Positions 139 to 55,470 are shown, counted from the stretch's first letter. The stretch: DNA of 55,470 bases from a virus (IMGVR_UViG_3300045911_000113:1-55470), one strand, 5' to 3'. Made by a program: numbers and translations. Notes: generated by a model not told the origin, from the sequence alone.

Positions 139-2223
139 TTATGTCAAGGGGTCGGAGCTGACCATAAGTTTATTGAGTGTGCGAGCAATGCTGGTAATGT
201 TGGTCGGATCAATGAAATGTGCATCTTGACCATACATCTTACGAAACCCCACATGTTCCTCCTTGCTATGACCGATGTAATAACTCATTACCTGAATGCC
301 ACTGGCACGGAACTCCTGCATCATACGACGGGTGTGCGTGTATGCCGATTCGCCACGGTATGAGTAGTGACGACCCTTCCACTGAAATCCGTGAGCGGGC
401 TCACCGTCCGACAGATTGATGAAATACTTCTTAGCGCCCTTGCTCGTCTTGAGAATTTCTTCCTTGACGGCTTCAAAGCACAGCGCTTCCGGTGTTCCGC
501 CCGTCGCATCCAGGTATGGCACTACATCACGAACGCGCTGGAACTTGTGGCGCTTGCTGTCATAGATGATCGCCAGATGGGCGTGTGTCAAGTCACCGTC
601 ACGAACCGCAATCGTGCAATTCATTTTGCGATTCTTTTCCGCTGCGTAGGCAATAGCCACCGCAAGTGTCATCGCATTGCGGAACTTATCACCCGCCATC
701 GAACCGCTGAGATCGATATCAAGCCACACATCAACGGGTTGACGCTGTTCGGTAACAATATGATGGAACACCTTTTCGTTACCATATCCAAATCCCGAAA
801 TCAGTCGCTTATCAATACGCCCAGTTTCCTGACGGGTGAACTTCATAGGCGACTCGTCCTGCACCACGGAAATACGGGAGGCAAGAACCTGACCCATACG
901 AATGCCATCGGCAAGCGCACGCTCGGCATCGGGGTTGCGGTCACTATTGCGACCATAACTATGCGTATGGAATCGCATCGGGAACGAATTGCGTTGCACC
1001 GTCTGCTTGGTAACTTCCCGATAAATGATAATCGGACACTTGATGTCTCGGCCAAGAAAATTACCCTCAATCGCCTTGAACTCTGCCTTGGAATCCTCAA
1101 GCATCTGGAGATCTCGCATAATCCGATTTGGCAGCGTCTCCTTTTGTTCATTGAGCGCCGAGTGGTCAAGGAACTTACGCTGCTTGTTGAGCGCGTCGTC
1201 GAGTTCTTTACCGGACACGGGACGATATTCGACTTCACCGTCGCTGTTTTCGTTTGTCGGCGAAAAGTCCATATTCGGCATATCAGTAACAACCGTCTTG
1301 ACATTTTGCAACTTCATATCATCCGGCCGACCATTCTCACTTGTGACCGACTTGCTATTACGGACGATGATTTCCGCAATACGAAGCGCATCCGCAAACA
1401 ACAGAGGCAGATGATCGTGATTGACCGTGCCCAGACCAGCCCACCGACGCCATCCGAGATCCTCATCACCACGCGCAAACAAACCCTTGCGCGTGAAATT
1501 GATAATATCACGAATCTTGTCAAGATCTGGAAGTGCCGTAATATCGAAATGCTTGTTCGTCATATTGATAACGAACAATTCGTAATTACGAACGGATGGA
1601 TCGCGGAACTTGGGATCGCGCAGCGCATTATCAATCTCCGCACTGTGCCAGTATGCGTTATACAATGCTTGATAATACGGACGATACCCGCTCGCATTCT
1701 CGTACATCCACAGATCAATACGGCGATCTTCCATATAATTCATCATCATCTGAATGAGCTGATGAACATCTCGTTCGTTCATGCCGATCTTGGATGCATC
1801 CTCCAGAATCGTACTCTTGCCGACAAGATCACAGAAGTTCTTTTCCATCTTCGGAAGAAATGCCAACGACGCATTACTGAGAAGACAGTGCGAAGCTTCG
1901 TGCAGCGCCACACCGACCTGTACGTCAATTTTCAACGGATCAAGATCAGCGGAAATCACGACCTGCTTGCCGTCGGTGTAACTGAGCTGGCCACTTGAGA
2001 AAATCACGGGGATATTACGTCCCGTGACAATCTGAACGAAATTGCCGATGGCACGCTGCACGATGCGAAGCCGCCGCAAGTGTTCGGGCGAACCTATTTC
2101 GCACTGCGTCATCATTTCTTCGGCTTCATCGCCGAGCCAATAAACGCTGTGCTGTTCACGAGCCTTGGCAATCCGTTCTTGGATGCGCTTCTGAACGTAT
2201 GGATTCTGAATAGTAGTAGTCAT
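139..2223 (-). CDS. vWA-domain protein with N-terminal HExxH metallopeptidase-like domain (CobT-like partner of MoxR ATPase)
   Basis: VALHEASH and EDRRID motifs; C-terminal MIDAS DLSGSM...GGTP...LSDGEP; adjacent to MoxR AAA. Confidence 0.85.
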   Translation of the reverse strand: MTTTIQNPYVQKRIQERIAKAREQHSVYWLGDEAEEMMTQCEIGSPEHLRRLRIVQRAIGNFVQIVTGRNIPVIFSSGQLSYTDGKQVVISADLDPLKIDVQVGVALHEASHCLLSNASLAFLPKMEKNFCDLVGKSTILEDASKIGMNERDVHQLIQMMMNYMEDRRIDLWMYENASGYRPYYQALYNAYWHSAEIDNALRDPKFRDPSVRNYELFVINMTNKHFDITALPDLDKIRDIINFTRKGLFARGDEDLGWRRWAGLGTVNHDHLPLLFADALRIAEIIVRNSKSVTSENGRPDDMKLQNVKTVVTDMPNMDFSPTNENSDGEVEYRPVSGKELDDALNKQRKFLDHSALNEQKETLPNRIMRDLQMLEDSKAEFKAIEGNFLGRDIKCPIIIYREVTKQTVQRNSFPMRFHTHSYGRNSDRNPDAERALADGIRMGQVLASRISVVQDESPMKFTRQETGRIDKRLISGFGYGNEKVFHHIVTEQRQPVDVWLDIDLSGSMAGDKFRNAMTLAVAIAYAAEKNRKMNCTIAVRDGDLTHAHLAIIYDSKRHKFQRVRDVVPYLDATGGTPEALCFEAVKEEILKTSKGAKKYFINLSDGEPAHGFQWKGRHYSYRGESAYTHTRRMMQEFRASGIQVMSYYIGHSKEEHVGFRKMYGQDAHFIDPTNITSIARTLNKLMVSSDPLT

Positions 2224-33166: not shown

Positions 33167-34522
33167 TTACCCTATTGTTTGTAGAATGTTGATAATCGTT
33201 GCCATCATATTAATTTCCTTGTTGACCACCTGCGCGTCGTATTTCTGACCCTCAGCAATGTGTAAAATTACTTGACTAATATTTCCTTTAGCGTAGGTAT
33301 CTACATTGGAGTATAAAAGACTATAAAATTCAGTAAAGTCACGAATACCAGCATCAGCGAACAGTTGACGAATTTCCGTGAATCGCTTCTTAGCATCGCC
33401 CTTCTGTCCAAGAAGTTCAATGACACGAAGTTTAATATCAGAAGCAACTACTTCCTCGGCATCAATTGACAATTTCCCGTCATTAACGGCCAACGAAGCT
33501 TCACCGATAATCTTACGAATATCGGGATAATAAGCATCTACGAGCAACTTGATGTCGTCCGGCTTATACGACACGCTTTCCTGTTTCAAGATACCAGCGA
33601 GGTGCTTGGCTACCTCAATCTTATTCGGCGGAACTACGTGGAACTGCTGAGTTCTGCTGATGATCGGGTCAATAATGCGTTCTACATAATTACAAGTCAA
33701 GATGAATCGGCACGACCGACTAAACGTTTCCATAACGTTACGAAGTGCTGCTTGTGCGTTCGGCGTCATATAATCACAATTATGAGTCAATGTTTGTGTC
33801 CGTCCAATAAAAAAGTTATGATTTCCTTGAACGGATAAATCATATACACGTCTTTGTACGTCGAGTTTTTTTATTTTCGTAATTTTGACAGTTTTTAATT
33901 CCACTTCTGGGGATAGTATGTGGGAATAAGCGTCCAATTCTGATGTTTTAACCACTAGTATCTCGCCTGTGTCTGATCGAACATACCATTTGTGATCCGC
34001 CGTACAGATTACGACCTCACCGTTCTCTAACTCAAGTTCATACACATCTTGTAAACCTTTATCAAATTTATCAAATTGTCTCCACTCAATTCGATTGTGG
34101 ACTGTATTCCACGATTTCACTAAATCCGTCAACGGATTTACATCTTTTATAGCCACTGCGGTTTCTGACCCCTCACGAAGTACCCACACCAATGTATTTT
34201 CGTCCAAACACTCATCTAAAATGATGACTTTGAGATCTGTAAACCCCACGGTCGAGGCAAATCCCCTTATCTTGTTTCGGACGGTATCTACATTGTTCTC
34301 ATCGGACGCATTGATATACAAGCTTTCACACTCAATGTTCTTGACAATAATCTTGGCCACTGTGGTCTTGCCTGTTCCTGGTGGTCCACTCAACAAGATG
34401 TGTGGAACATCACCCTCGGCAATAAACTTGCCAACCTTGGCCTTCATGCTATCGTTGCCGATGTAATTATCAAGTGTGGTAGGACGATATTTTTCTACCC
34501 ATATACTGTGTGTAGCGTTCAT
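33167..34522 (-). CDS. clamp loader large subunit (gp44/RFC-like) with intein; mature ~307 aa
   Basis: WVEKYRP, GPPGTGKT, NASD, IILDE|CDY, FILTCNY. Confidence 0.93.
   Translation of the reverse strand: MNATHSIWVEKYRPTTLDNYIGNDSMKAKVGKFIAEGDVPHILLSGPPGTGKTTVAKIIVKNIECESLYINASDENNVDTVRNKIRGFASTVGFTDLKVIILDECLDENTLVWVLREGSETAVAIKDVNPLTDLVKSWNTVHNRIEWRQFDKFDKGLQDVYELELENGEVVICTADHKWYVRSDTGEILVVKTSELDAYSHILSPEVELKTVKITKIKKLDVQRRVYDLSVQGNHNFFIGRTQTLTHNCDYMTPNAQAALRNVMETFSRSCRFILTCNYVERIIDPIISRTQQFHVVPPNKIEVAKHLAGILKQESVSYKPDDIKLLVDAYYPDIRKIIGEASLAVNDGKLSIDAEEVVASDIKLRVIELLGQKGDAKKRFTEIRQLFADAGIRDFTEFYSLLYSNVDTYAKGNISQVILHIAEGQKYDAQVVNKEINMMATIINILQTIG
33779..34210 (-). mobile_element. cis mini-intein (144 aa) at Walker B of clamp loader
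   Basis: CLDENT...CTADHKW...VYDLSV..NHNF...THN|C; no endonuclease domain. Confidence 0.92.
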
Positions 34523-44457: not shown

Positions 44458-44778
44458 TCAGAATGTTAACATGTTGAGTTTCTTTTCAATAGCTTCTACC
44501 GTGGTATCACCGTAGATAAACTGCGATGCTCGACCATCACGATAGAATACTGTCATTGGTATGGCTTTGATTCGAGCACGTTCCTTAAACTGGAACAGTG
44601 TGACCTCAGTTTCGCCACCTAATTCAGCATTTCAACGTAATACACCAAACTGTTCATTGATGCCATCTACGGTCTGCTTTTCAATGCGTCTCATTGAACC
44701 TGAACGGTCAATGACTAATGCTACATACGTCTTTTTTTCGTTCTTCTTGACCTTCTTGGTCTTTTTTGTTGTAACCAT
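44458..44778 (-). pseudogene. chimeric pseudogene: vWA N-terminus (with internal TGA) fused in frame to thioredoxin C-terminus
   Basis: TYVALVIDRSGSM...LR*NAE...VTLFQF then RIKAIPMTVFYRDG...IEKKL*; TGA at 44632-44634. Confidence 0.7.
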
Positions 44779-45008
44779 TATCGTACTCCTCCGTATGTGA
44801 AGCCTAATTTTTCAAGACTGTCATACGTGAAGCCTAATTTTTCAAGACTGTTTTGTTTTTTTGTTGTGGTAACTGTTATGGTTGTGGTGGTTTCTGGGAG
44901 GGGGACAAGTCCAATCCATCGTGGACGACACCAGTAACACGAATGACAGCATGAATTACAAGAGTGACAGCATGAATTACAAGAGTGACAGCACATATCA
45001 TACTCCAC
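44778..45008 (-). CDS. small Cys/His-rich protein with internal tandem duplications
   Basis: (CCHSCNS)x2 and (SLEKLGFTY)x2; stop/start coupling with neighbours. Confidence 0.5.
   Translation of the reverse strand: MEYDMCCHSCNSCCHSCNSCCHSCYWCRPRWIGLVPLPETTTTITVTTTKKQNSLEKLGFTYDSLEKLGFTYGGVR
44797..44851. repeat. 25-bp direct repeat, 30-bp period
   Basis: gtgaagcctaatttttcaagactgt at 44797 and 44827. Confidence 0.9.
44944..44993. repeat. 21-bp tandem repeat (~2.4 copies)
   Basis: tgacagcatgaattacaagag x2 + tgacagca. Confidence 0.9.
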
Positions 45009-45552
45009 CGGGTTTCATACCCAGCTTATCGAAAATGTTTGTAGGTGTTGTCTGCGACACGGAGTTTGCGAGGGTGATTAATCCCGATACACCAAGACTT
45101 CTAACCATTGATGAAACTTGTGGTGATACCCAAATAGCATTTGCAGTGCCAAATGGGATGTTGGGATCTACTGATTCTACTTTGGCCGAGAATGAACCAG
45201 TAAGAGCACCTCCTGTGAGTACACAACTATAGTTTTGAGCTCTTGCAAGTACCACTAGGTCTTCTCTGGAAAGGCCGGTACGAGCACTGTTTTGATACAA
45301 TGTCGTACCGGAAATACCATCCACGCCTTTCCAGTTTGGGTTGTTTTCGCCAACGCGAGTTTTTAGTTGGCAACCACATGACGTAGAACGACCTTTGACC
45401 AATGAGTATACATCGGCACGTTTTACACTACCACATACACACTGTACATCCATTTGAGCAGGACTGTCGTAAATGACTCCATCCACTACAGTCCATGACC
45501 CAAATGTATCACCGGCTTTGAATTTTCCTACGTACTTTGGTTTTCTACCCAT
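44998..45552 (-). CDS. phage HNH-associated protein with apparently degenerate nuclease site
   Basis: FG.WTV, C.CG...L..G.STSCGC, GENNPNWKG, Q..C.LTG; ESVD where DRID is expected. Confidence 0.6.
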   Translation of the reverse strand: MGRKPKYVGKFKAGDTFGSWTVVDGVIYDSPAQMDVQCVCGSVKRADVYSLVKGRSTSCGCQLKTRVGENNPNWKGVDGISGTTLYQNSARTGLSREDLVVLARAQNYSCVLTGGALTGSFSAKVESVDPNIPFGTANAIWVSPQVSSMVRSLGVSGLITLANSVSQTTPTNIFDKLGMKPGGV

Positions 45553-45633
45553 ATAACCTCCTGGCAGACATCTATAAGTAGTGTCGTTTTTCGTAAAACG
45601 CTTATTCTGCCAGAAATCATTGTTCGAATTATC

Positions 45634-45755
45634 CTAGATTGTACAACCACCGGCCACACATGCAAGATTTTCTGCTAGAGCCGTATCATCCTCGGTTTCA
45701 ACAACCTTGGTGAGATCAAGTGTATGTAGGTGTGCAAATAGTTCTTCATATCGTT
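45634..45755 (-). pseudogene. orphan alternative 3' end of the RNR gene
   Basis: RYEELFAHLHTLDLTKVVETEDDTALAENLACVAGGCTI* versus true end ...KVIETEDETELQQTVACSGGACEIV*. Confidence 0.85.
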
Positions 45756-46514
45756 AGCAACATAAGTCTTCTTCGCCGTTGATTTCTTCGGCAACTTGAC
45801 CTTGATTTTCTTTACCGCCATATAAACCTCTTACTTTTGAAAGGTATGTTTGTAAACATCCATCACGGCTTGTAATCCGTTATCAGTGATGTCTCTTGTG
45901 CCTATGCCGGCAAAGTGTTTAGTTCTCAACTTCGGTATTCCTGTGAATATGGAGAACCTACCGTTGTGATGGTCATATTCATACCATGATTCTGTGGGCT
46001 GGTCGTAAAAGAATATCGGCTTTCCGTTATTTACGGCCATTTGAACGGCCCAACCTGTGCCACCATCAACGCGCGTGTATGTATCGTCGTAAAATTTACC
46101 AATGGCAAAGATAGTCTCTCCATTTTTCACTTGATACCAATTTCTACTGATTAAACACTTGGTATATCGTGGCGCGGATAGGAGATTTCGTTTGAATTGC
46201 ACATTCACATCTAATGCATGTGCCAATCCTTCATGTAATTCAGCATCTGATAAGATGACGGGATTTTTTCCATACTGTTTGTGACCAGAGAAAGAATAGG
46301 CGTATGTCACCACGCCGTATTCTTCTCCAGCAGTTTCCCATGCCATATCAGCGCCAGGACACCCGCCACTGTGACATACATAACCCATATTAGACTATCT
46401 CACAAGCTCCACCGCTGCAAGCAACGGTTTGTTGTAGTTCAGTTTCATCTTCTGTTTCAATAACCTTGGTGAGATCAAGTGTATGTAGGTGTGCAAATAG
46501 TTCTTCATATCGTT
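45703..46514. repeat. 53-bp exact direct repeat (45703-45755 and 46462-46514)
   Basis: aaccttggtgagatcaagtgtatgtaggtgtgcaaatagttcttcatatcgtt in both places. Confidence 0.92.
45831..46388 (-). CDS. SLOG/DprA-like Rossmann-fold phage protein
   Basis: HSGG..GAD..W, RNW.QV, V.GGTGWAVQMA, FAGIGTR. Confidence 0.68.
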   Translation of the reverse strand: MGYVCHSGGCPGADMAWETAGEEYGVVTYAYSFSGHKQYGKNPVILSDAELHEGLAHALDVNVQFKRNLLSAPRYTKCLISRNWYQVKNGETIFAIGKFYDDTYTRVDGGTGWAVQMAVNNGKPIFFYDQPTESWYEYDHHNGRFSIFTGIPKLRTKHFAGIGTRDITDNGLQAVMDVYKHTFQK

Positions 46515-47073
46515 CCTTGGTAATGTCTTGGAACGGCGCCTGGATATAAGTGTGGTCGTCGTGTGGTAATACACTCAATGCGGTGTAGTTCTCTCGATTC
46601 GCCCACATCCACTCAAATACATCCTGCCACTCATCCTTTTTAATAGATACTGTGGTGGATACGTTGTTAATGTTTGCACCCTTACGATGTCCTACCTTGA
46701 CCCATTCCTTCCACACCTTACCTACGCGCTCAAGGAGGTCAAGAGCAGATTCATTGCGGAGAATAGCACCGTCTGGCGCCTTTTGTGGTACACTGATTAC
46801 CGCAGTCTTGTGTGGAGCAAAGAAATCGTCTTCCAACAACTCTGGATGTGCTTGTTGGAGATATCCATACACAGCTTCATTCTTGCCAACGCGGATGGTA
46901 CGAACGTAGTAGTCGTTGTGCCATGCGTGAATACCCGAAGAACTGCCTACTACAAGTGAGGTGGTGTTATGCACGACCGCGCCGTTCTTTAGTTGATAGG
47001 TATGTGTTCCCGACACCTCAATATCTACAGTTATTTTTTTCTCGGGATTCTTTCTAATTGTTTTGATTCTCAT
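46390..47073 (-). CDS. nrdJ: class II ribonucleotide reductase part 3 (IntC 36 aa + C-terminal extein)
   Basis: MRIKTI...VDIEV...VVHN|TTSL..GSSSGIH, Y.QAP, ACSGGAC; own GGAG RBS. Confidence 0.9.
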   Translation of the reverse strand: MRIKTIRKNPEKKITVDIEVSGTHTYQLKNGAVVHNTTSLVVGSSSGIHAWHNDYYVRTIRVGKNEAVYGYLQQAHPELLEDDFFAPHKTAVISVPQKAPDGAILRNESALDLLERVGKVWKEWVKVGHRKGANINNVSTTVSIKKDEWQDVFEWMWANRENYTALSVLPHDDHTYIQAPFQDITKERYEELFAHLHTLDLTKVIETEDETELQQTVACSGGACEIV

Positions 47074-47129
47074 TTATTTTCTCCAAAAGATATTGATGTG
47101 TTCCATCTTTGTTGGTAATATAATATTAC

Positions 47130-47924
47130 TCAGTAAGAAATTATTTCGTCGGTTTCCACCAACTCATCGGCACGAACCCAACCACGAGCAGTCAAGAATT
47201 TGTGATTTGGTGTTACCGATACTACCAACCCGTCTTCCATTTCAATATCCCAAACTTCAGATACACCATTGACATAAAGAGATATAATCTTTTGTTCTTG
47301 ATTGTTTTCATCCAAGACGGTAACATCTCTATCAAATGGAATAAACGTCTTTTCTTCAATTTGTGATGGATCAACACCAATCATATCAAACAAACTTTTC
47401 AATGTTACTGATCCGTTTGTTGTCTTCACTTCTGTTTCAGGCACCACGCAGCCTTCGGGCTTGACCGTAGTAGTACGAGCGGCTTTGTTGATACCCAACA
47501 TTTCAGCAACACGAGCATTTTCTTCCTTGACAATCTTTGCTGCTTCGGCAAGATTGAGATTCAACACTTCACCAGAAGCAATACCCGTCATAGATACACC
47601 GATCAATGCTTCCTTCTCAGTGGTCTTCTTCCAAATATCACGGAGATAGTGGAAATTCGTGTAAGTTGCCTGCAACGTACCAATAAACGAGGCAACACGA
47701 GCACGAAGGTTGAGGTCGTTTTGATCAACAATATCCGATGCATTAATTGTTGTCAAATTACAGAACTGATTGGGGCGAAGACTAATTTCTGCGCAATTGT
47801 GTACTAATAGTCCGTTTGCAAAGAAGTTATGATTTTTTCTTATGGTCAAGTCATAAACATCTTCATTTTCCCTGATTGTCTTTTTTACGATTCTAGATTT
47901 AACAATCTGTTTTGCTTCCACCAT
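47130..47924 (-). CDS. nrdJ: class II RNR part 2 (IntC 43 aa + extein + IntN 106 aa)
   Basis: VYDLT...HNFFANG.LVHN|CAEI..FCNL...TTVKPEG|CVVPET...VTPNHKF...DEIISY*. Confidence 0.92.
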   Translation of the reverse strand: MVEAKQIVKSRIVKKTIRENEDVYDLTIRKNHNFFANGLLVHNCAEISLRPNQFCNLTTINASDIVDQNDLNLRARVASFIGTLQATYTNFHYLRDIWKKTTEKEALIGVSMTGIASGEVLNLNLAEAAKIVKEENARVAEMLGINKAARTTTVKPEGCVVPETEVKTTNGSVTLKSLFDMIGVDPSQIEEKTFIPFDRDVTVLDENNQEQKIISLYVNGVSEVWDIEMEDGLVVSVTPNHKFLTARGWVRADELVETDEIISY

Positions 47925-48694
47925 TTTAATTCCCCCAAGTATGTATTTCCATCCAAAAACGGAGTAATGTTATCTATTAAACAAAACTCAACGTTTTTTA
48001 AAGATGGGTCTTTTTTAAGTTCTTCAAACTTCCACACCCTATTTTTGAAATATCCCTTGACTTCTATTATCTTTACAAGTTTTCCGGCTTCATATATAAA
48101 AAAATCAGGTCTATATGATTCTGCCCCTAACATCCATTGTTGAGATTCTACATCCCAATCAAATTTATTTTTATCTAACCATTTGGCTAGAATATATTCA
48201 TATGTTGACCGAAGCCATACATATTTTTGTCTTGATTTGTTAAAGAAGTAACCTGTAACCCCACGTTCTGTGTTCTTATTCTTGGTTCGTCTGTTTCTCC
48301 AACCGCCAGATTTTATTGCATTTTCACTTCTAACTCGTTTTAGATTTTCTGTAACAACATTATATCCTTTACGAATTGGTATGTTTATATATTCTAGGAG
48401 CCTACGCATTTTTGTGTAGCTAATGTTTAGTTCTCTTGCCATTAACTTTAATCCAACTCCGTCATGTTCATACTTTTGGCGCACCGATGATACAAAATAA
48501 TTCCACTCATCTGCATAAACTTCTTGGAGTTTTTTTCTAATAAAGGTTTTCTTTACAAACCCTCTAGCTCCGTTTCCATACAATTTATACTGCTCTTTAA
48601 AAAATTCTCGGTATTCTGTTTGCCACTCGTTACGAATGTCACGATACCCATCCAACTCTATAAACTTACGATATAAGGTATTCAAGTCTAACAT
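47885..48694 (-). CDS. free-standing homing endonuclease (PD-(D/E)xK, TnsA-N-like) between split-intein halves
   Basis: WLRSTYE...WLD...YRPDFF...IIEVKG; start at MLDLNT. Confidence 0.78.
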   Translation of the reverse strand: MLDLNTLYRKFIELDGYRDIRNEWQTEYREFFKEQYKLYGNGARGFVKKTFIRKKLQEVYADEWNYFVSSVRQKYEHDGVGLKLMARELNISYTKMRRLLEYINIPIRKGYNVVTENLKRVRSENAIKSGGWRNRRTKNKNTERGVTGYFFNKSRQKYVWLRSTYEYILAKWLDKNKFDWDVESQQWMLGAESYRPDFFIYEAGKLVKIIEVKGYFKNRVWKFEELKKDPSLKNVEFCLIDNITPFLDGNTYLGELKWWKQNRLLNLES

Positions 48695-48698
48695 AGGG

Positions 48699-48744
48699 TT
48701 CCCCGCAATAGGTTCTACATATAAATAGTGTCTATTGTGGGGAA
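48699..48744 (-). promoter_or_regulatory. RBS-sequestering hairpin with CTATTTATA motif in the loop
   Basis: arms 48732-48744 and 48699-48711 (TTCCCCACAATAG / CTATTGCGGGGAA); motif at 48720-48728. Confidence 0.75.
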
Positions 48745-48756
48745 ACAACCCATATG

Positions 48757-50472
48757 TTATTTAATATTCACCAAAATATCTTCTTCGGTCAATTGAGCGG
48801 CCTCCACCCAACCACGATTTTCAGTAAATACCTTGTGGTCCGGAGTTAGCTTTAGAGTCTCACCAGTATCAAGGGTCAATTCAATAATTGATGTCTTTTC
48901 GCGGGTAAGAGCAGCATTATCCAACACATCCCACTCCAACTGCTTTAGCTCTGTATTATACGAAAGCACCATTGGTGGTAATGTAGTGGTTTCGTAGAGT
49001 TCTACGAGCTGTTTAAGTGGAATCTGATATACTCCGCCTTCTGCGACAACTTCACCGTCGGAGATGATATCGTGATCTCTGACTGTAATGAGAGCATCTC
49101 CGGTAATGCATGGGTTGAGTCCCCATTCCTTGTCATTCGTCATAAAGAAGCCAGGTTCACCAGAACCCGATGCTTCAATCTTCTTCCATAGATCATAGAA
49201 GGTTTCCTTATCAATCTTGTGACGAAGAATGGTGGCGCTATTATTAGCACGTTGTCTCTGTGGATTCAATTCCCAGAAATTACCAAACTTACAAGTCAAC
49301 ATTTCTTCATCATCAAGATCGAATAGACTGATCATTGCGGAACGACGAATACCACCAGCTAATACCGCATCAGCAATATAACAGTTGATGTCATGTACAT
49401 CAATTGGCTCTAGTTGTTCGCCGTCTTCCTTACGTTCAAAAATCTTCTTGATGTTGTGTAACGCATCATTGAGAGGTTCTGGTCCCGGTGCCTTACCGCC
49501 AGAAGTGATAAGCTTTGCACCTTTGGGACGTATATCACGAAAATCAAAATCAGGTATAGGCTTGCCTTCAAAATAGGCACGAACAAGTACCTTTACTGCG
49601 TCTGACCATCCTTCAATACTATCTCCTACAACAAATCGACGAGTCTTCTTATTCTTACGAATAGCTGGTAGCTGTTCAATGTGATGACGCTGAACTGAAT
49701 ATCCTACTCCCACACCAGATAACAACAAGAACATGAGTTCGGAAAATGATGCGGGGTGGTTCATTGGCAAAAATGAACAGTTCCCTGTAACTTCCCCCGT
49801 TGCCAATACAAAGCTGCGATCATCTTCAACTTCTAAACACCACACCGGTTCCTTTCCAGATGGTACGATACTCTTGACAACAAAGCTCATATTCGTTTCA
49901 GGAGTAGATTCTTCATAGATAAATTGATCAAAGATTACCGGTGCAGATGCTAACTTATCTCCAACTTTTAGTGAAGTAGTTTCTGTTCCGTCCTTAAGAA
50001 TCCACCGATGATTCGATGTGGCTCTGGTCACATGTGAATGTCGTCCCCGAATAATCGTAATATCATACAACTCATCAACACCGTAGTTTCGTACTGTGGC
50101 CTTCTTCCAATTACCTTTGTGGGTAAGAACGTATGTGGTATCACCATCTGTAAAATCATTAAAAGATTTTACACCATCTCTCGTAACGAAACGGGTATCG
50201 GCGCTTAGACAATTGTAAATTCTAGCAGGGTTTAACTCAATCGGCTTTCCAGCAAATTGTAACGAACGCATAGACGGCAAAACCTTACGTTCAAAAACTA
50301 ATTTGTAAGCTTCACGAATTTCCTGTTCAAGTGCAGGAAATTTCTTGATGTGCATATCCATATTACGTGTGACTACTTCATCCCATGTCTCACGACGTTG
50401 GAGTTCTGGAATGAACTTGGCATATTTCATATGCACCGTGAGATCTGACAAAATTTGGGTGCTAAGTTCCAT
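48757..50472 (-). CDS. nrdJ: class II (B12, monomeric-type) RNR part 1 with cis intein and terminal IntN
   Basis: RETW, PSMRSLQF, YN|C...GN|CSF, GVGVGYS, GGIRRSAMI, GEPG, LNP|CITGD...LTPDHKV...DILV*. Confidence 0.93.
   Translation of the reverse strand: MELSTQILSDLTVHMKYAKFIPELQRRETWDEVVTRNMDMHIKKFPALEQEIREAYKLVFERKVLPSMRSLQFAGKPIELNPARIYNCLSADTRFVTRDGVKSFNDFTDGDTTYVLTHKGNWKKATVRNYGVDELYDITIIRGRHSHVTRATSNHRWILKDGTETTSLKVGDKLASAPVIFDQFIYEESTPETNMSFVVKSIVPSGKEPVWCLEVEDDRSFVLATGEVTGNCSFLPMNHPASFSELMFLLLSGVGVGYSVQRHHIEQLPAIRKNKKTRRFVVGDSIEGWSDAVKVLVRAYFEGKPIPDFDFRDIRPKGAKLITSGGKAPGPEPLNDALHNIKKIFERKEDGEQLEPIDVHDINCYIADAVLAGGIRRSAMISLFDLDDEEMLTCKFGNFWELNPQRQRANNSATILRHKIDKETFYDLWKKIEASGSGEPGFFMTNDKEWGLNPCITGDALITVRDHDIISDGEVVAEGGVYQIPLKQLVELYETTTLPPMVLSYNTELKQLEWDVLDNAALTREKTSIIELTLDTGETLKLTPDHKVFTENRGWVEAAQLTEEDILVNIK
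48760..49110 (-). mobile_element. split intein N-half (117 aa) inserted before the thiyl-radical Cys
   Basis: CITGDALI block A, LTPDHKVFT block B, then stop. Confidence 0.9.
49780..50211 (-). mobile_element. cis mini-intein (144 aa), Gly-Asn C-terminus
   Basis: CLSADT...ATSNHRW...VWCLEV...VTGN|C. Confidence 0.9.
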
Positions 50473-53251: not shown

Positions 53252-53485
53252 TCAATCTTCTGAAATTAGACACACCGCATCTTCCGAACCATCAATATTG
53301 ATATTTTCATCGTCAATCAAGTCGTCTTCACTGACAAAATCAGTTGCTCCTGACTCGTCTTCAATCCAATACCCCACAATGAGTTCATCAAGTGGTGAGA
53401 TTCGTGTTTGACTGGCGTTTGATAGAATTACTACTGCTTGAGGATTACATCCCGAAAGTATATCAATAAGTTCTTCAACTGTCAT
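53252..53485 (-). CDS. small highly acidic protein
   Basis: 77 aa, ~20 D/E, one Arg, no Lys; ATGA coupling to recA. Confidence 0.6.
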   Translation of the reverse strand: MTVEELIDILSGCNPQAVVILSNASQTRISPLDELIVGYWIEDESGATDFVSEDDLIDDENINIDGSEDAVCLISED

Positions 53486-54726
53486 TCTTCAACTCCCACC
53501 GAAACTTCGCGGTCTTCCGAAGATAGTGATTCTGATGAATAGCTCATAATATGTGCGGCTGCCATCTTTTCATAAATTTCCGACTGGAGTTCTGGATTTG
53601 TCTCCAACCAATTACGCCACTCCTTGCTCTCCATTCTATGATCGGTGCCTTCATTATCTGTATATGTGATATATGCACCACCAGTGCTGACAATGTTTTT
53701 GGCCTTACAATAGTCTTTCCATGATGTCAGATCATCAATACCGCGATCAAAGTATACATCAAACTCAGCAGTGCGGAATGGTGGACCAAGGCGATTCTTA
53801 ATCACCGATGCCTTGACGTTCACACCAAGCACTTCCTTGTTCTTGTTAGTAATCTTCCCCGTAACAGACAAACGCAAACGAGTTGAGGCGTGGAATGCAA
53901 TTGCCTTACCACCCGAAGTCGTCCAAGGATCACTAAATGCCGGAGCATTCAATTTCTGGCGAAGCTGATTGGTGAATACTAGTGCAATCTTTTGTTTAGC
54001 AATGAGTTGAGTGACTTTACGCATCGCCTTGCTCAAGATAATAGCCTTGCCTGTTGCATATCCGTCTTTATTATAGTCGGATTCAAGTTCAGCGGCAGTT
54101 GGTACACCAGCAACAGAGTCCACTACAATAATGACCTTCTTATCCGCGTTACCGCCTTTACGTACCGTTTCAATGATCTTTTCGATCATTATGAAAATGT
54201 CTTCTAAAGTTTCTGGTTGAGCATATACCATCTTATTGAAGTCAAGACCAATGGCTTCATAAAATTCTGCGTTGACGGCATTTTCTGTGTCAATTAACAC
54301 AGATACACCACCTTCACGTTGAACATTTGCCATCATATGTGCTGCCAACAAACTCTTACCTGAATTGTGATTTAACATGCCATTACCAAAATACGCATGT
54401 TCATCATCATCCACAGTAATATCTACAATTGGATATTGACCGATAAATTCTACGGACACAACTTTAGAATATGTCCCATCATCACATAAAACCGAGTGTA
54501 ATCCAACTCGTAAATGTTGTGTTTCAACCCAACCAGCATTTGTGAAAAACTTATGTTCTTTTGATGTTTTTATGGAATAGGAATTTTCTAGAGTAACCAA
54601 AAATGTATCAAGTATTCCTTTCTCTATGTAGTTAGAAATTGGTGAATATGTACCATTTCTAGTTTTTACCTTAACCGTCTTTCCTTCGGATAACAGTTTT
54701 TTAACTTCTCGGATTTCAATTATCAT
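53482..54726 (-). CDS. RecA/UvsX recombinase C-terminal part preceded by a 121-aa IntC
   Basis: ...KTSKEHKF...VDITV...NHN|SGKS, IDTE, VVDSVA, FTNQLR, TSGGKAI.FHAS.R, KNRLGPP. Confidence 0.9.
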   Translation of the reverse strand: MIIEIREVKKLLSEGKTVKVKTRNGTYSPISNYIEKGILDTFLVTLENSYSIKTSKEHKFFTNAGWVETQHLRVGLHSVLCDDGTYSKVVSVEFIGQYPIVDITVDDDEHAYFGNGMLNHNSGKSLLAAHMMANVQREGGVSVLIDTENAVNAEFYEAIGLDFNKMVYAQPETLEDIFIMIEKIIETVRKGGNADKKVIIVVDSVAGVPTAAELESDYNKDGYATGKAIILSKAMRKVTQLIAKQKIALVFTNQLRQKLNAPAFSDPWTTSGGKAIAFHASTRLRLSVTGKITNKNKEVLGVNVKASVIKNRLGPPFRTAEFDVYFDRGIDDLTSWKDYCKAKNIVSTGGAYITYTDNEGTDHRMESKEWRNWLETNPELQSEIYEKMAAAHIMSYSSESLSSEDREVSVGVEE

Positions 54727-55470
54727 ATGTTTTTTATTAGTCGAGTGTAATTTTTTTCACTGATTGCTAACTTATTCTGAGATATTAATTCATCGATCCA
54801 CTGAATAGTTAGTATTGGTAAATTGTATGTATGTTCTGTTATGAAGTCTGCGAAAAGATTTCGTTCACGACAGTAATTTTGCAATGCAATAAATTTTGTT
54901 TGTACTTCTTCATTAGAAGTTAATTTAGATGGCTTTATTTCATATATTGTATTGTCAATCACTATATCAGGACAATAGGTTCTATCTGCTTCTTTATATG
55001 AATATGGTATTCTATGTGTAGATAATACAAACCGAATATTATTTAAATCTAAATACAAATATACTCGTAACTCTAACATACTTCTAAAATGTACTTTATG
55101 ACCGTTAATAAGTATCCACCCAGAGATTCCACTTCCCGCCGACAATGCTGGACTGCGGCCGTACATAGAATTTAAATTTCCCGTTTGTGGATTTTCGTTT
55201 GGTACTCCTATTAACTTACAAAGTTGATAATATTTTCTTTCACCATATCCAAATACATTTTGTAATTCTTTACGAATTTGCCATTTGTATTTACCGGCGT
55301 CAATTTGTTCTTTAAACCAAGTTTGGATATCGGAAGACAGTGGTTTTAGTTCAACGGATTTTAATACATCGGAAGATTTTTTACCATTAGTCTTTGCTAT
55401 ATGTGATCTTTTAATTTTCCAGTTGTAAGAAACTTTATCATACAAATTATAAAATATTAGATATGATTTT
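54723..55470 (-). CDS. homing endonuclease (TnsA-N-like) between RecA split-intein halves; 5' end outside window
   Basis: G..N.MYG, FRS.LELR, Y.PD, YEIKP; frame open to window end. Confidence 0.75.
   Translation of the reverse strand, partial: KSYLIFYNLYDKVSYNWKIKRSHIAKTNGKKSSDVLKSVELKPLSSDIQTWFKEQIDAGKYKWQIRKELQNVFGYGERKYYQLCKLIGVPNENPQTGNLNSMYGRSPALSAGSGISGWILINGHKVHFRSMLELRVYLYLDLNNIRFVLSTHRIPYSYKEADRTYCPDIVIDNTIYEIKPSKLTSNEEVQTKFIALQNYCRERNLFADFITEHTYNLPILTIQWIDELISQNKLAISEKNYTRLIKNI

Follow-up and report, generated by a model that had tools for sequence, protein, structure and literature searches.

How can a ribonucleotide reductase (RNR) gene that is broken into three open reading frames (ORFs) still specify one enzyme? 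This question is raised by the nrdJ locus on the minus strand of the virus contig IMGVR_UViG_3300045911_000113:1-55470, which comes from a hot-spring microbial mat; the whole analysed stretch of 55,470 nucleotides (nt) is referred to below as the window. The most probable answer, to which we assign a probability of about 0.8, is that nrdJ has been invaded by three inteins and is produced as three polypeptides (P1, P2 and P3), from which one cis-splicing and two trans-splicing events would make an enzyme of 616 amino acids (aa). According to this scheme, three independent inteins would have entered the gene at three active-site motifs, YN/C (C119), NP/C (C408) and KPEG/T (a slash marks the junction). 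The loop of intein 1 would have been cut by a PD-(D/E)xK-like homing-endonuclease gene that landed in it, and intein 2 would be naturally split with no endonuclease left. P1, P2 and P3 would be translated from their own ribosome-binding sites and P1 would remove its cis intein. The N-terminal half-intein IntN1 of P1 would pair with the C-terminal half-intein IntC1 of P2, and IntN2 of P2 with IntC2 of P3; the two trans-splicing reactions would restore the sequences NPCAEI and KPEGTTS.

Gene organization and identification of the inserts as inteins

An earlier note on this DNA had described three separate ORFs, each with its own start and stop codon, and these match base for base (Table 1). Listing the ORFs and cutting them at the intein motifs reproduced all coordinates and counts of the nrdJ pieces, among them the sum of the extein segments ext1a, ext1b, ext2 and ext3 (87 + 223 + 115 + 191 = 616 aa) and the sizes of IntN1, IntC1, IntN2 and IntC2 (117, 43, 106 and 36 aa). 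The cutting and a comparison with homologues also confirmed that the middle chain P2 has an IntC at its N-terminal and an IntN at its C-terminal end. The exteins are free of frameshifts and internal stops. The Shine-Dalgarno (SD) sequence GGGGG lies 7 nt upstream of the ATG of P2 and GGAG (47081-47084) 7 nt upstream of that of P3; a scan for sigma-70 promoters returned 16 sites against 16.3 expected.

Relatives were collected from IMG/VR by a scan with P2 (the best 80 loci of 223 confirmed relatives) and from protein clusters with P2 and with P3 as queries (the best 120 relatives for each, of 1605 and 2587 hits in total). The 80 loci and the 120 clusters are the top of similarity-to-query rankings, and fractions of them are not population frequencies. 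In 43 of the 80 loci the homologue is one uninterrupted protein, and its counterparts of the four extein segments join at precisely the predicted points with no extra codon; removal of the elements restores a colinear host protein. The intein-less homologue L042 also aligns across all three sites with a solved reductase (1l1l; see below). The catalytic motifs of class 1 inteins are present in each insert, namely C, TSNH, N and C in the cis intein, C, TPDH, N and C in intein 1, and C, TPNH, N and T in intein 2. All four half-inteins exceed the NCBIfam cut-offs for the intein N-terminal region (TIGR01445, 24.5) or the intein C-terminal region (TIGR01443, 15.6). All 31 middle pieces compared, at 44-84% identity, have N43, C44, C159, T238 and H241, and all 48 C-terminal pieces have H35 and N36; 47 of the latter have Thr at position +1. 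Judged from these sequences, nrdJ is interrupted by three inteins, one of them cis and the others split and different from each other.

The host protein

P1 and P3 matched a single solved enzyme, the ribonucleoside-triphosphate reductase (RTPR) of Lactobacillus leichmannii (1l1l; E 3.3e-20 and 3e-3, respectively), and ext2 alone gave no match in the PDB. For the full-length alignment and the profile search the intein-less homologue L042 (616 aa) was used instead of joined window pieces. This protein is colinear with the four extein segments, at 64-83% identity, and aligns with RTPR 1l1l over residues 30-737 (E 4.6e-32). In the latter alignment the residue that follows the cis insert is the Cys at chain position 119, and the one that follows intein 1 is the Cys of NPC, which lies 11 residues before C419 (position 408 by count); the insertion point of intein 2 lies inside KPSG/T. 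The Cys residues of RTPR at 119 and 419, the NPC at 406-408 (by count) and the C-terminal CxxxxC are kept in L042, and the same residues are found in the exteins of the window. We take the roles of these aligned residues (thiyl radical, redox pair, C-terminal pair) to be those familiar from work on RTPR. The best NCBIfam model for L042 is TIGR02505 (RTPR), on which the three window pieces scored 122.7, 46.0 and 46.3 bits. The class II RNR identity proposed in the earlier note was thus borne out by the best family and by the only enzyme matched in the PDB, with the scoring done via L042. A side observation touches the same enzyme: a 694-aa ORF at 139-2223 (minus strand), for which Pfam gave no match, weakly matches a PHROG family of a cobalamin biosynthesis protein (E 1.7e-5) and may be relevant to a B12-dependent reductase.

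Intein 1, its endonuclease gene and its two alleles

IntN1 matches the solved NrdJ-1 intein (8ubs, E 1.8e-13), and IntC1 aligns to the IntC of NrdJ-1. The insertion point of the window, NP/C...HN/CAEI, is not the site of the NrdJ-1 allele; the Cys of NPC serves as +1 nucleophile and is the first residue of ext2. An IntC beside ext2 is present in 35 related loci, 12 of which share the point of the window and 23 of which have the NrdJ-1 point. In the accessible text of Dassa (2009, PMC2677866) the NrdJ point is given one residue later, and the NP/C point of intein 1 is that given there for NrdA. By its sequence, intein 1 is a clear NrdJ-1 relative at a site shifted by one residue.

The placement of IntN1 after LNP and of IntC1 at HN/CAEI, as put forward earlier, is correct for the window, but a gene between the two halves had been overlooked. 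The P1-P2 interval of 832 nt consists of a 62-nt spacer with a hairpin, followed by an endonuclease-like ORF of 269 aa. An alternative TTG start at 48748 would extend this ORF to 287 aa; its relatives begin at the ATG at 48694. None of 200 shuffled sequences folds as well as the hairpin, the 3' arm of which covers the SD sequence and the AUG of the endonuclease gene. The motif E...PD...ExK (E166, P196, D197, E211, K213) is invariant in 13 of 13 homologues of the endonuclease, all of which lie between the IntN and the IntC of the same nrdJ site. The protein has a weak match to Pfam HSDR_N (E 0.004, below the cut-off) and to two PHROG nuclease families. Its AlphaFold2 model (pLDDT 85.7) gave weak Foldseek matches, all with E of at least 0.07, to Bax1, TnsA, AF1548, XisH and VRR_NUC. 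No GIY-YIG or Vsr-like motif is present in it, and a BLASTP comparison with the uvsX-associated ORF of the window was not significant (E 6.5). On these sequence features, the 269-aa ORF appears to encode a PD-(D/E)xK-like, putative free-standing homing endonuclease.

A second allele is found on the sister contig L001, which is 98.6-98.9% identical to the window at the nucleotide level over 7.3 kb. A cassette of 841 nt (Table 1) is missing from L001, in which P1 and P2 form one ORF of 834 aa with a contiguous intein 1 of 158 aa. The junction reads GGAGTTAAAGTGGTGGAA in L001 and GGGGGAATTAAAATGGTGGAA in the window. Mismatches between the two pile up at the edges of the cassette, with 7 in 48784-48805 and 3 in 47909-47930, compared with about 1 per 100 nt elsewhere, and these clusters look like a co-conversion tract. 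The description of intein 1 as a split intein is therefore right for the window allele and does not extend to this near-identical one.

The locus occurs in ten public metagenome runs of hot springs or microbial mats, with no RNA run among those listed, and four of them (X1, X3, X5 and X9) were compared, using assembled Logan contigs rather than raw reads. The endonuclease-bearing form was found in X1, on a 25.5-kb contig, and in X3, on one of 1950 nt; both runs are possibly the source of the window itself. X5 and X9 have the joint 47933 to 48775, which skips the 841 nt, at depths of 19.8 and 14.2, in X9 on a contig of 24.9 kb; X5 also contains a 561-nt piece of the endonuclease gene at depth 4. 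The records of X1, X3 and X5 name the same sample, and both alleles occur among these runs. The stops at 47130 and 48757 can be regarded as real from the agreeing contigs of the four runs, and the stop at 47130 and the gap that follows it also occur in L001.

Intein 2, a split intein with Thr at position +1

Intein 2 has no close solved relative. The best PDB matches to IntN2 are DnaB inteins (E 2e-5), and IntC2 alone matched the C-terminal half of Npu DnaE at an E of 0.7. A complex of IntN2 (P2 154-264) and IntC2 (P3 1-48) was predicted with an ipSAE of 0.75 (0.71-0.79 in three runs), compared with 0.00 for the best of three controls; of 80 solved complexes 58 attain the mark for this score, and of 110 mismatched pairs 2 do so. 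The agreement of contacts was at least 93% and the pLDDT of the partners at least 71. This pass may reflect only a likeness to solved split-intein complexes.

The claim that Thr is the +1 residue (HN/TTS) is supported by the relatives. Among the best 120 clusters obtained with P3 as query, 84 are ORFs whose initiator Met opens an IntC of 34-55 aa, and in 80 of these the IntC measures 34-36 aa. Every one of the 84 IntC terminates in HN, and the residue after it is Thr in 83 cases and Ser in one. Intein 2 is absent from 35 of the remaining clusters, and one is of another kind. The P2/P3 gap, too, proved not to be an assembly error. It is identical in L001, with no mismatch in its 59 nt or in IntC2, and it is spanned by contigs of all four runs, none of which has an indel or base change in 47074-47132. 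An intron or a structured bypass element in the 56-nt spacer was considered and rejected, as no significant RNA fold was found there (z -0.94).

The interval between IntN2 and IntC2 differs among relatives. It is 56-170 nt long and without a gene in L001, L003, L008 and L009, and it contains a Vsr-like gene (FDGDYWH-type motif) in L002, a GIY-YIG gene in L023 and a 42-aa GIY-YIG remnant in L045. With the contiguous intein 2 of cluster P0070 included, relatives of intein 2 span all states: a Vsr-like or GIY-YIG endonuclease, a remnant, none, and a contiguous intein.

The cis mini-intein

The cis mini-intein at YN/C was confirmed with exact coordinates; homologues are colinear across the site, the insertion is exact with respect to them, and the +1 Cys aligns with C119 of RTPR. 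An alignment of 16 sequences gave an AlphaFold2 model with a pLDDT of 91.9 and a pTM of 0.84. The top 50 Foldseek rows for this model are all inteins or HINT proteins, with E values of 1e-6 to 1e-7 for the Npu DnaE, gp41-1 and DnaB inteins (TM 0.75/0.77 for Npu DnaE and 0.71/0.80 for gp41-1). The cis element is thus predicted to fold as a HINT domain. A comparison of the insert with a contiguous intein 2 in hhalign was only moderate (probability 52.7).

At E of 1e-3 or below, 138 relatives of the cis intein were found, inserted in NrdJ and NrdD proteins. The 110 that have an intact Cys1...Asn region comprise 16 mini-inteins of 131-163 aa and 94 larger forms, mostly of about 300 aa. The family shares the signature N/C...T.NHRW...VWCLEVEDDHSF...TGN/C. 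Three further observations concern this family: its members lie at Cys sites of class II (NrdJ) and class III (NrdD) reductases (proteins P0122-P0240), one relative sits in a protein with isocitrate-lyase-type Pfam domains, and the forms of about 300 aa carry an inserted domain.

Distribution among relatives

The best 120 clusters found with P2 comprise 30 middle pieces of the type IntC-extein-IntN, 77 singly fractured pieces (IntC-ext2-ext3), 12 pieces of ext2-IntN2 with another N-terminal end, and the one with the contiguous intein 2. Two relatives, L002 and L023, carry both split inteins of the window. L003 and L045 have three split inteins in four ORFs, with extra sites at LLLGG/T and GGIRR/S. 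In L039, three ORFs carry two split inteins, one at LLGG/T and one at the NrdJ-1 point, and both are accompanied by an endonuclease gene of their own (Vsr-like and PD-ExK-like). On the evidence of these ORF layouts, the multi-piece organization is common in metagenomes and not a one-off. In L003, a 75-aa zinc-finger ORF (2667-2891) overlaps the 3' end of the IntN and lies between the halves of the first intein.

The earlier note had also proposed that inteins 1 and 2 are a co-evolved pair, and this was not upheld. Across the 80 loci, neither site is occupied in 43, only the thiyl-Cys site in 28, only the intein 2 site in 2 and both in 5, and 2 loci are cut at site 1. As the occupancy of the two sites varies independently, inteins 1 and 2 look like separate mobile invasions.

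Among deposited phages, a megablast search of the locus against 50,697 records gave no match. In a tblastn search with P2, none of the 210 matching records covered at least 80% of the query, and the middle piece was found in no deposited phage. A P3-like ORF in deposited phages was also considered. Some tblastn rows extended over residues 1-227 of P3; the one that was opened, from Methylophilales phage MEP402, proved to be a read-through alignment to a single intein-less coding sequence of 620 aa.

Comparison with known systems

Dassa (2009, PMC2677866) described genes fractured in two by split inteins with a free-standing endonuclease gene between the halves, the endonucleases being of the GIY-YIG or Vsr-like type, and hairpins in the 5' untranslated regions of the endonuclease genes. 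The window shows this fractured-gene layout for intein 1, and shares with the NrdJ-1 gene of that study a phage-type nrdJ, a free-standing, co-oriented endonuclease gene that separates IntN from IntC, a hairpin and overlapping frames. The differences, as far as the accessible text goes, are that the loci of Dassa are in two pieces, compared with three in the window and four in L003 and L045, and that the endonuclease of the window has an E...PD...ExK motif. Intein 2 has no endonuclease gene between its halves, a state that the same study gives for the split intein gp41-7; the spacer of intein 2 has only 56 nt and includes an SD sequence. The host gene, the insertion site and the intein family of gp41-7 are different (Dassa 2009, PMC2677866).

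Engineered tandem trans-splicing systems (Pinto 2020, PMC7090010; Angew 2025, PMC12707363) join at least three segments, with a middle segment that carries an IntC and an IntN, as in the window. According to the accessible text, those systems are man-made and their orthogonality was measured; the window is natural and orthogonality is predicted for it from sequence. In the phage Aeh1 (PMC3045599; also mentioned in the accessible part of Dwivedi 2013, PMC3653736) the large RNR subunit NrdA is likewise split by a free-standing endonuclease gene (mobE) and needs assembly; unlike the pathway proposed for the window, that system uses no intein and makes no peptide bond. The literature searched, which was largely without subscription journals and supplements, yielded no account of a natural gene that carries two or more split inteins.

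Points against the proposed pathway and alternative explanations

Several points weigh against the pathway of one cis and two trans splicing events. The SD sequence upstream of P1 is weak. The 260.1 bits of L042 on TIGR02505 are below the equivalog cut-off of 340.05, for which reason the enzyme is, as judged by sequence, an RTPR-like class II RNR rather than a certified RTPR equivalog. The cis intein is missed by sequence searches of Pfam and the PDB, and it has Gly instead of His before its terminal Asn; this Gly is a family trait, because the relatives share the TGN/C signature and all 16 aligned mini members end in TGN. The endonuclease-bearing allele of intein 1 could be a recent invasion, with trans-splicing poorer than the splicing of the cis form, an idea that is weakened by L004-L007, which keep the same split form at intein identities of 83-88%. 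We infer from sequence that all three splicing reactions take place and are efficient, that there is no crossing between the pairs, and that the spliced enzyme would be active. Charge cannot keep the two pairs apart, because both IntN have a net charge of -13 and the IntC of +3 and +4, and cross-pairing could yield a product without ext2 or a circularised ext2.

Of the earlier claim that one cis and two mutually orthogonal trans-splicing events occur, the anatomy, the exact junctions and the presence of two different split inteins stood, and orthogonality remains a prediction. IntN1 and IntN2 are identical at 27 of 94 aligned positions (28.7%), and IntC1 and IntC2 at 14 of 32 (43.8%). The IntC-X-IntN topology is the one used to cyclise peptides; as P2 has this topology, crossing would be costly, which argues for selection against it. 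Given the low identity, cross-reaction seems unlikely by analogy with gp41-1, gp41-8, NrdJ-1 and IMPDH-1, reported as mutually orthogonal in the accessible text of Pinto (2020, PMC7090010).

The locus might instead be a gene that is being destroyed by selfish elements, some of the inteins no longer splicing, the pieces dead or marginal and the phage relying on the RNR of its host. The window is indeed rich in mobile elements, with three inteins in nrdJ, one in a clamp-loader gene and one in uvsX, and with endonuclease-like ORFs at 47885-48694, 44998-45552 and 54723-55445, and the accessible part of Dwivedi (2013, PMC3653736) describes phage RNR genes that are seemingly degenerating under their intein load. 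We nevertheless consider destruction improbable: the catalytic residues of the inteins and the aligned active-site residues of the RNR are all preserved, the reading frames of the exteins are undamaged, ribosome-binding sites are in place, and the piece types recur at 44-84% identity with invariant residues, which argues for purifying selection. Non-covalent assembly, with the intein halves acting as docking domains only, has its precedent in the fragmented NrdA of Aeh1, which assembles without splicing according to the accessible text (PMC3045599), and the predicted IntN2/IntC2 complex would agree with docking. The breaks lie inside the active-site motifs NPC and KPxGT, however, so that an intein of about 150 aa would stay lodged there, and Cys1, TxxH, the terminal Asn and the +1 nucleophile, which are needed for the chemistry and not for docking, are invariant in distant relatives; docking alone is a most unlikely explanation.

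That the P2/P3 gap or the stop of P1 arose from faulty assembly or sequencing, and that nrdJ is less fragmented than it seems, might be suspected from the small size of the gap (56 nt) and from the endonuclease-free allele, in which P1 and P2 are fused. This is scarcely credible in view of the identity of the gap in an independently assembled IMG/VR contig and the lack of any difference in the contigs of the four runs, of the 84 P3 relatives that start with Met directly at IntC2, and of the two endonuclease-bearing contigs from X1 and X3, even with these runs as the possible source of the window. Reassembly of nrdJ by one cis and two trans splicing events is thus the preferred reading.

Other inteins and mobile elements in the window

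At least five inteins are present in the window, spread over three genes of replication or nucleotide metabolism; the features are collected in Table 1. The intein in the uvsX/recA-like ORF matches gp41-1 (1.6e-5) and VidaL (4.5e-4, from chain residue 27) in the PDB. On the sister contig L081 (3536-5245), a 91-aa ORF consists of the N-terminal part of UvsX and 13 intein residues, followed by a stop, and only a 55-aa remnant of the PD-ExK-like ORF is kept between the uvsX pieces. From these sequences the uvsX intein is, by all appearances, atypically split, with a very short IntN; its likeness to the VidaL UvsX intein we take in part as given.

Other differences between the window and L001 lie outside the intein cassette. 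The stretch 44487-45637 (1151 nt), which includes an HNH-endonuclease-like ORF at 44998-45552 (phrog_374, E 1.8e-9), is missing from L001, and 7776-8595 of L001 (820 nt) is missing from the window. A direct repeat of 70 nt (46445-46514 and 45686-45755, 97-100% identity) repeats the 3' end of nrdJ P3 downstream of a DprA-like gene (45831-46388), and contigs of all four runs break or fork at this repeat. The DprA-like gene may have been inserted with a target duplication.

Table 1. Coordinates of the nrdJ pieces, inteins and associated features in the window, and of multi-piece relatives
Feature	Coordinates	Strand	Size	Remarks
P1	48757-50472	minus	571 aa	ext1a, cis intein, ext1b and IntN1; stop TAA 48757-48759
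P2	47130-47924	minus	264 aa	IntC1, ext2 and IntN2; stop TGA 47130-47132
P3	46390-47073	minus	227 aa	IntC2 and ext3; stop 46390-46392
ext1a (N-terminal extein of nrdJ)	50212-50472	minus	87 aa	ends RIYN; colinear with intein-less homologues; weak RNR_Alpha Pfam match
cis mini-intein	49780-50211	minus	144 aa	Cys1; block B TSNH; ends TGN, then Cys +1
ext1b	49111-49779	minus	223 aa	ends GLNP; homologue colinearity
IntN1	48760-49110	minus	117 aa	block B TPDH; TIGR01445 40.7
841-nt cassette	47934-48774	minus	841 nt	by blastn; source of the stop of P1, of the endonuclease gene and of the SD/ATG of P2
RNA hairpin	48689-48759	minus		between P1 stop and endonuclease start; -30.2 kcal/mol, z -5.69
endonuclease-like gene	47885-48694	minus	269 aa	from ATG; overlaps P2 start by 40 nt
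IntC1	47796-47924	minus	43 aa	ends VHN, then Cys +1 (Cys of NPCAEI); TIGR01443 37.2
ext2	47451-47795	minus	115 aa	CAEI...KPEG; C408 and C419 equivalents aligned via L042
IntN2	47133-47450	minus	106 aa	block B TPNH; TIGR01445 33.8; C159, T238 and H241 invariant in 31 of 31
P2/P3 spacer	47074-47129	minus	56 nt	SD GGAG inside; no endonuclease gene
IntC2	46966-47073	minus	36 aa	ends VHN, then Thr +1; TIGR01443 21.9
ext3 (C-terminal extein)	46393-46965	minus	191 aa	TTSLV...CSGGACEIV; RTPR 1l1l residues 551-738; TIGR02505 profile positions 624-723
uvsX/recA-like ORF	53482-54726	minus		starts inside intein; residues 1-121 HINT; block B TSKEH; NHN/SGKS in P-loop
PD-ExK-like ORF	54723-55445	minus	240 aa	between uvsX pieces; N piece beyond window end
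clamp-loader gene with mini-intein	33167-34522	minus	451 aa	contiguous intein of about 143 aa, LDE/C...LTHN/CDY; Pfam Intein_splicing E 6.7e-12
multi-piece relative L003	2045-6606			
multi-piece relative L045	2449-6936			
multi-piece relative L039	1247-6077			

Significance

Protein engineering makes wide use of split inteins, of which NrdJ-1 is among the fastest. The ligation of multiple segments needs pairs that do not cross-react, and such sets have so far been assembled by screening. What appears to be new here is that gene fracture and trans-splicing are multiplied within one gene, that a cis and a trans allele occur as a natural pair, and that intein 2 belongs to a large uncharacterised family of split inteins with Thr at position +1. 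With slightly more confidence than doubt, we regard phage nrdJ as a natural family of multiply fractured genes, of three to four ORFs, that would be stitched together by two to three different split inteins. If this is true, the family would hold naturally selected, mutually non-interfering sets of split inteins, including an abundant Thr+1 split intein at KPxG/T, and a natural enzyme whose formation depends on two or three split inteins acting on common chains would be a source of pairs already selected to be compatible within one cytoplasm. The cis allele and the endonuclease-invaded trans allele, at 98.6-98.9% identity, would be a snapshot of the birth of a split intein, and the presence of such near-isogenic alleles in runs filed under one sample makes the 'gene-breaking' model of Dassa directly testable.

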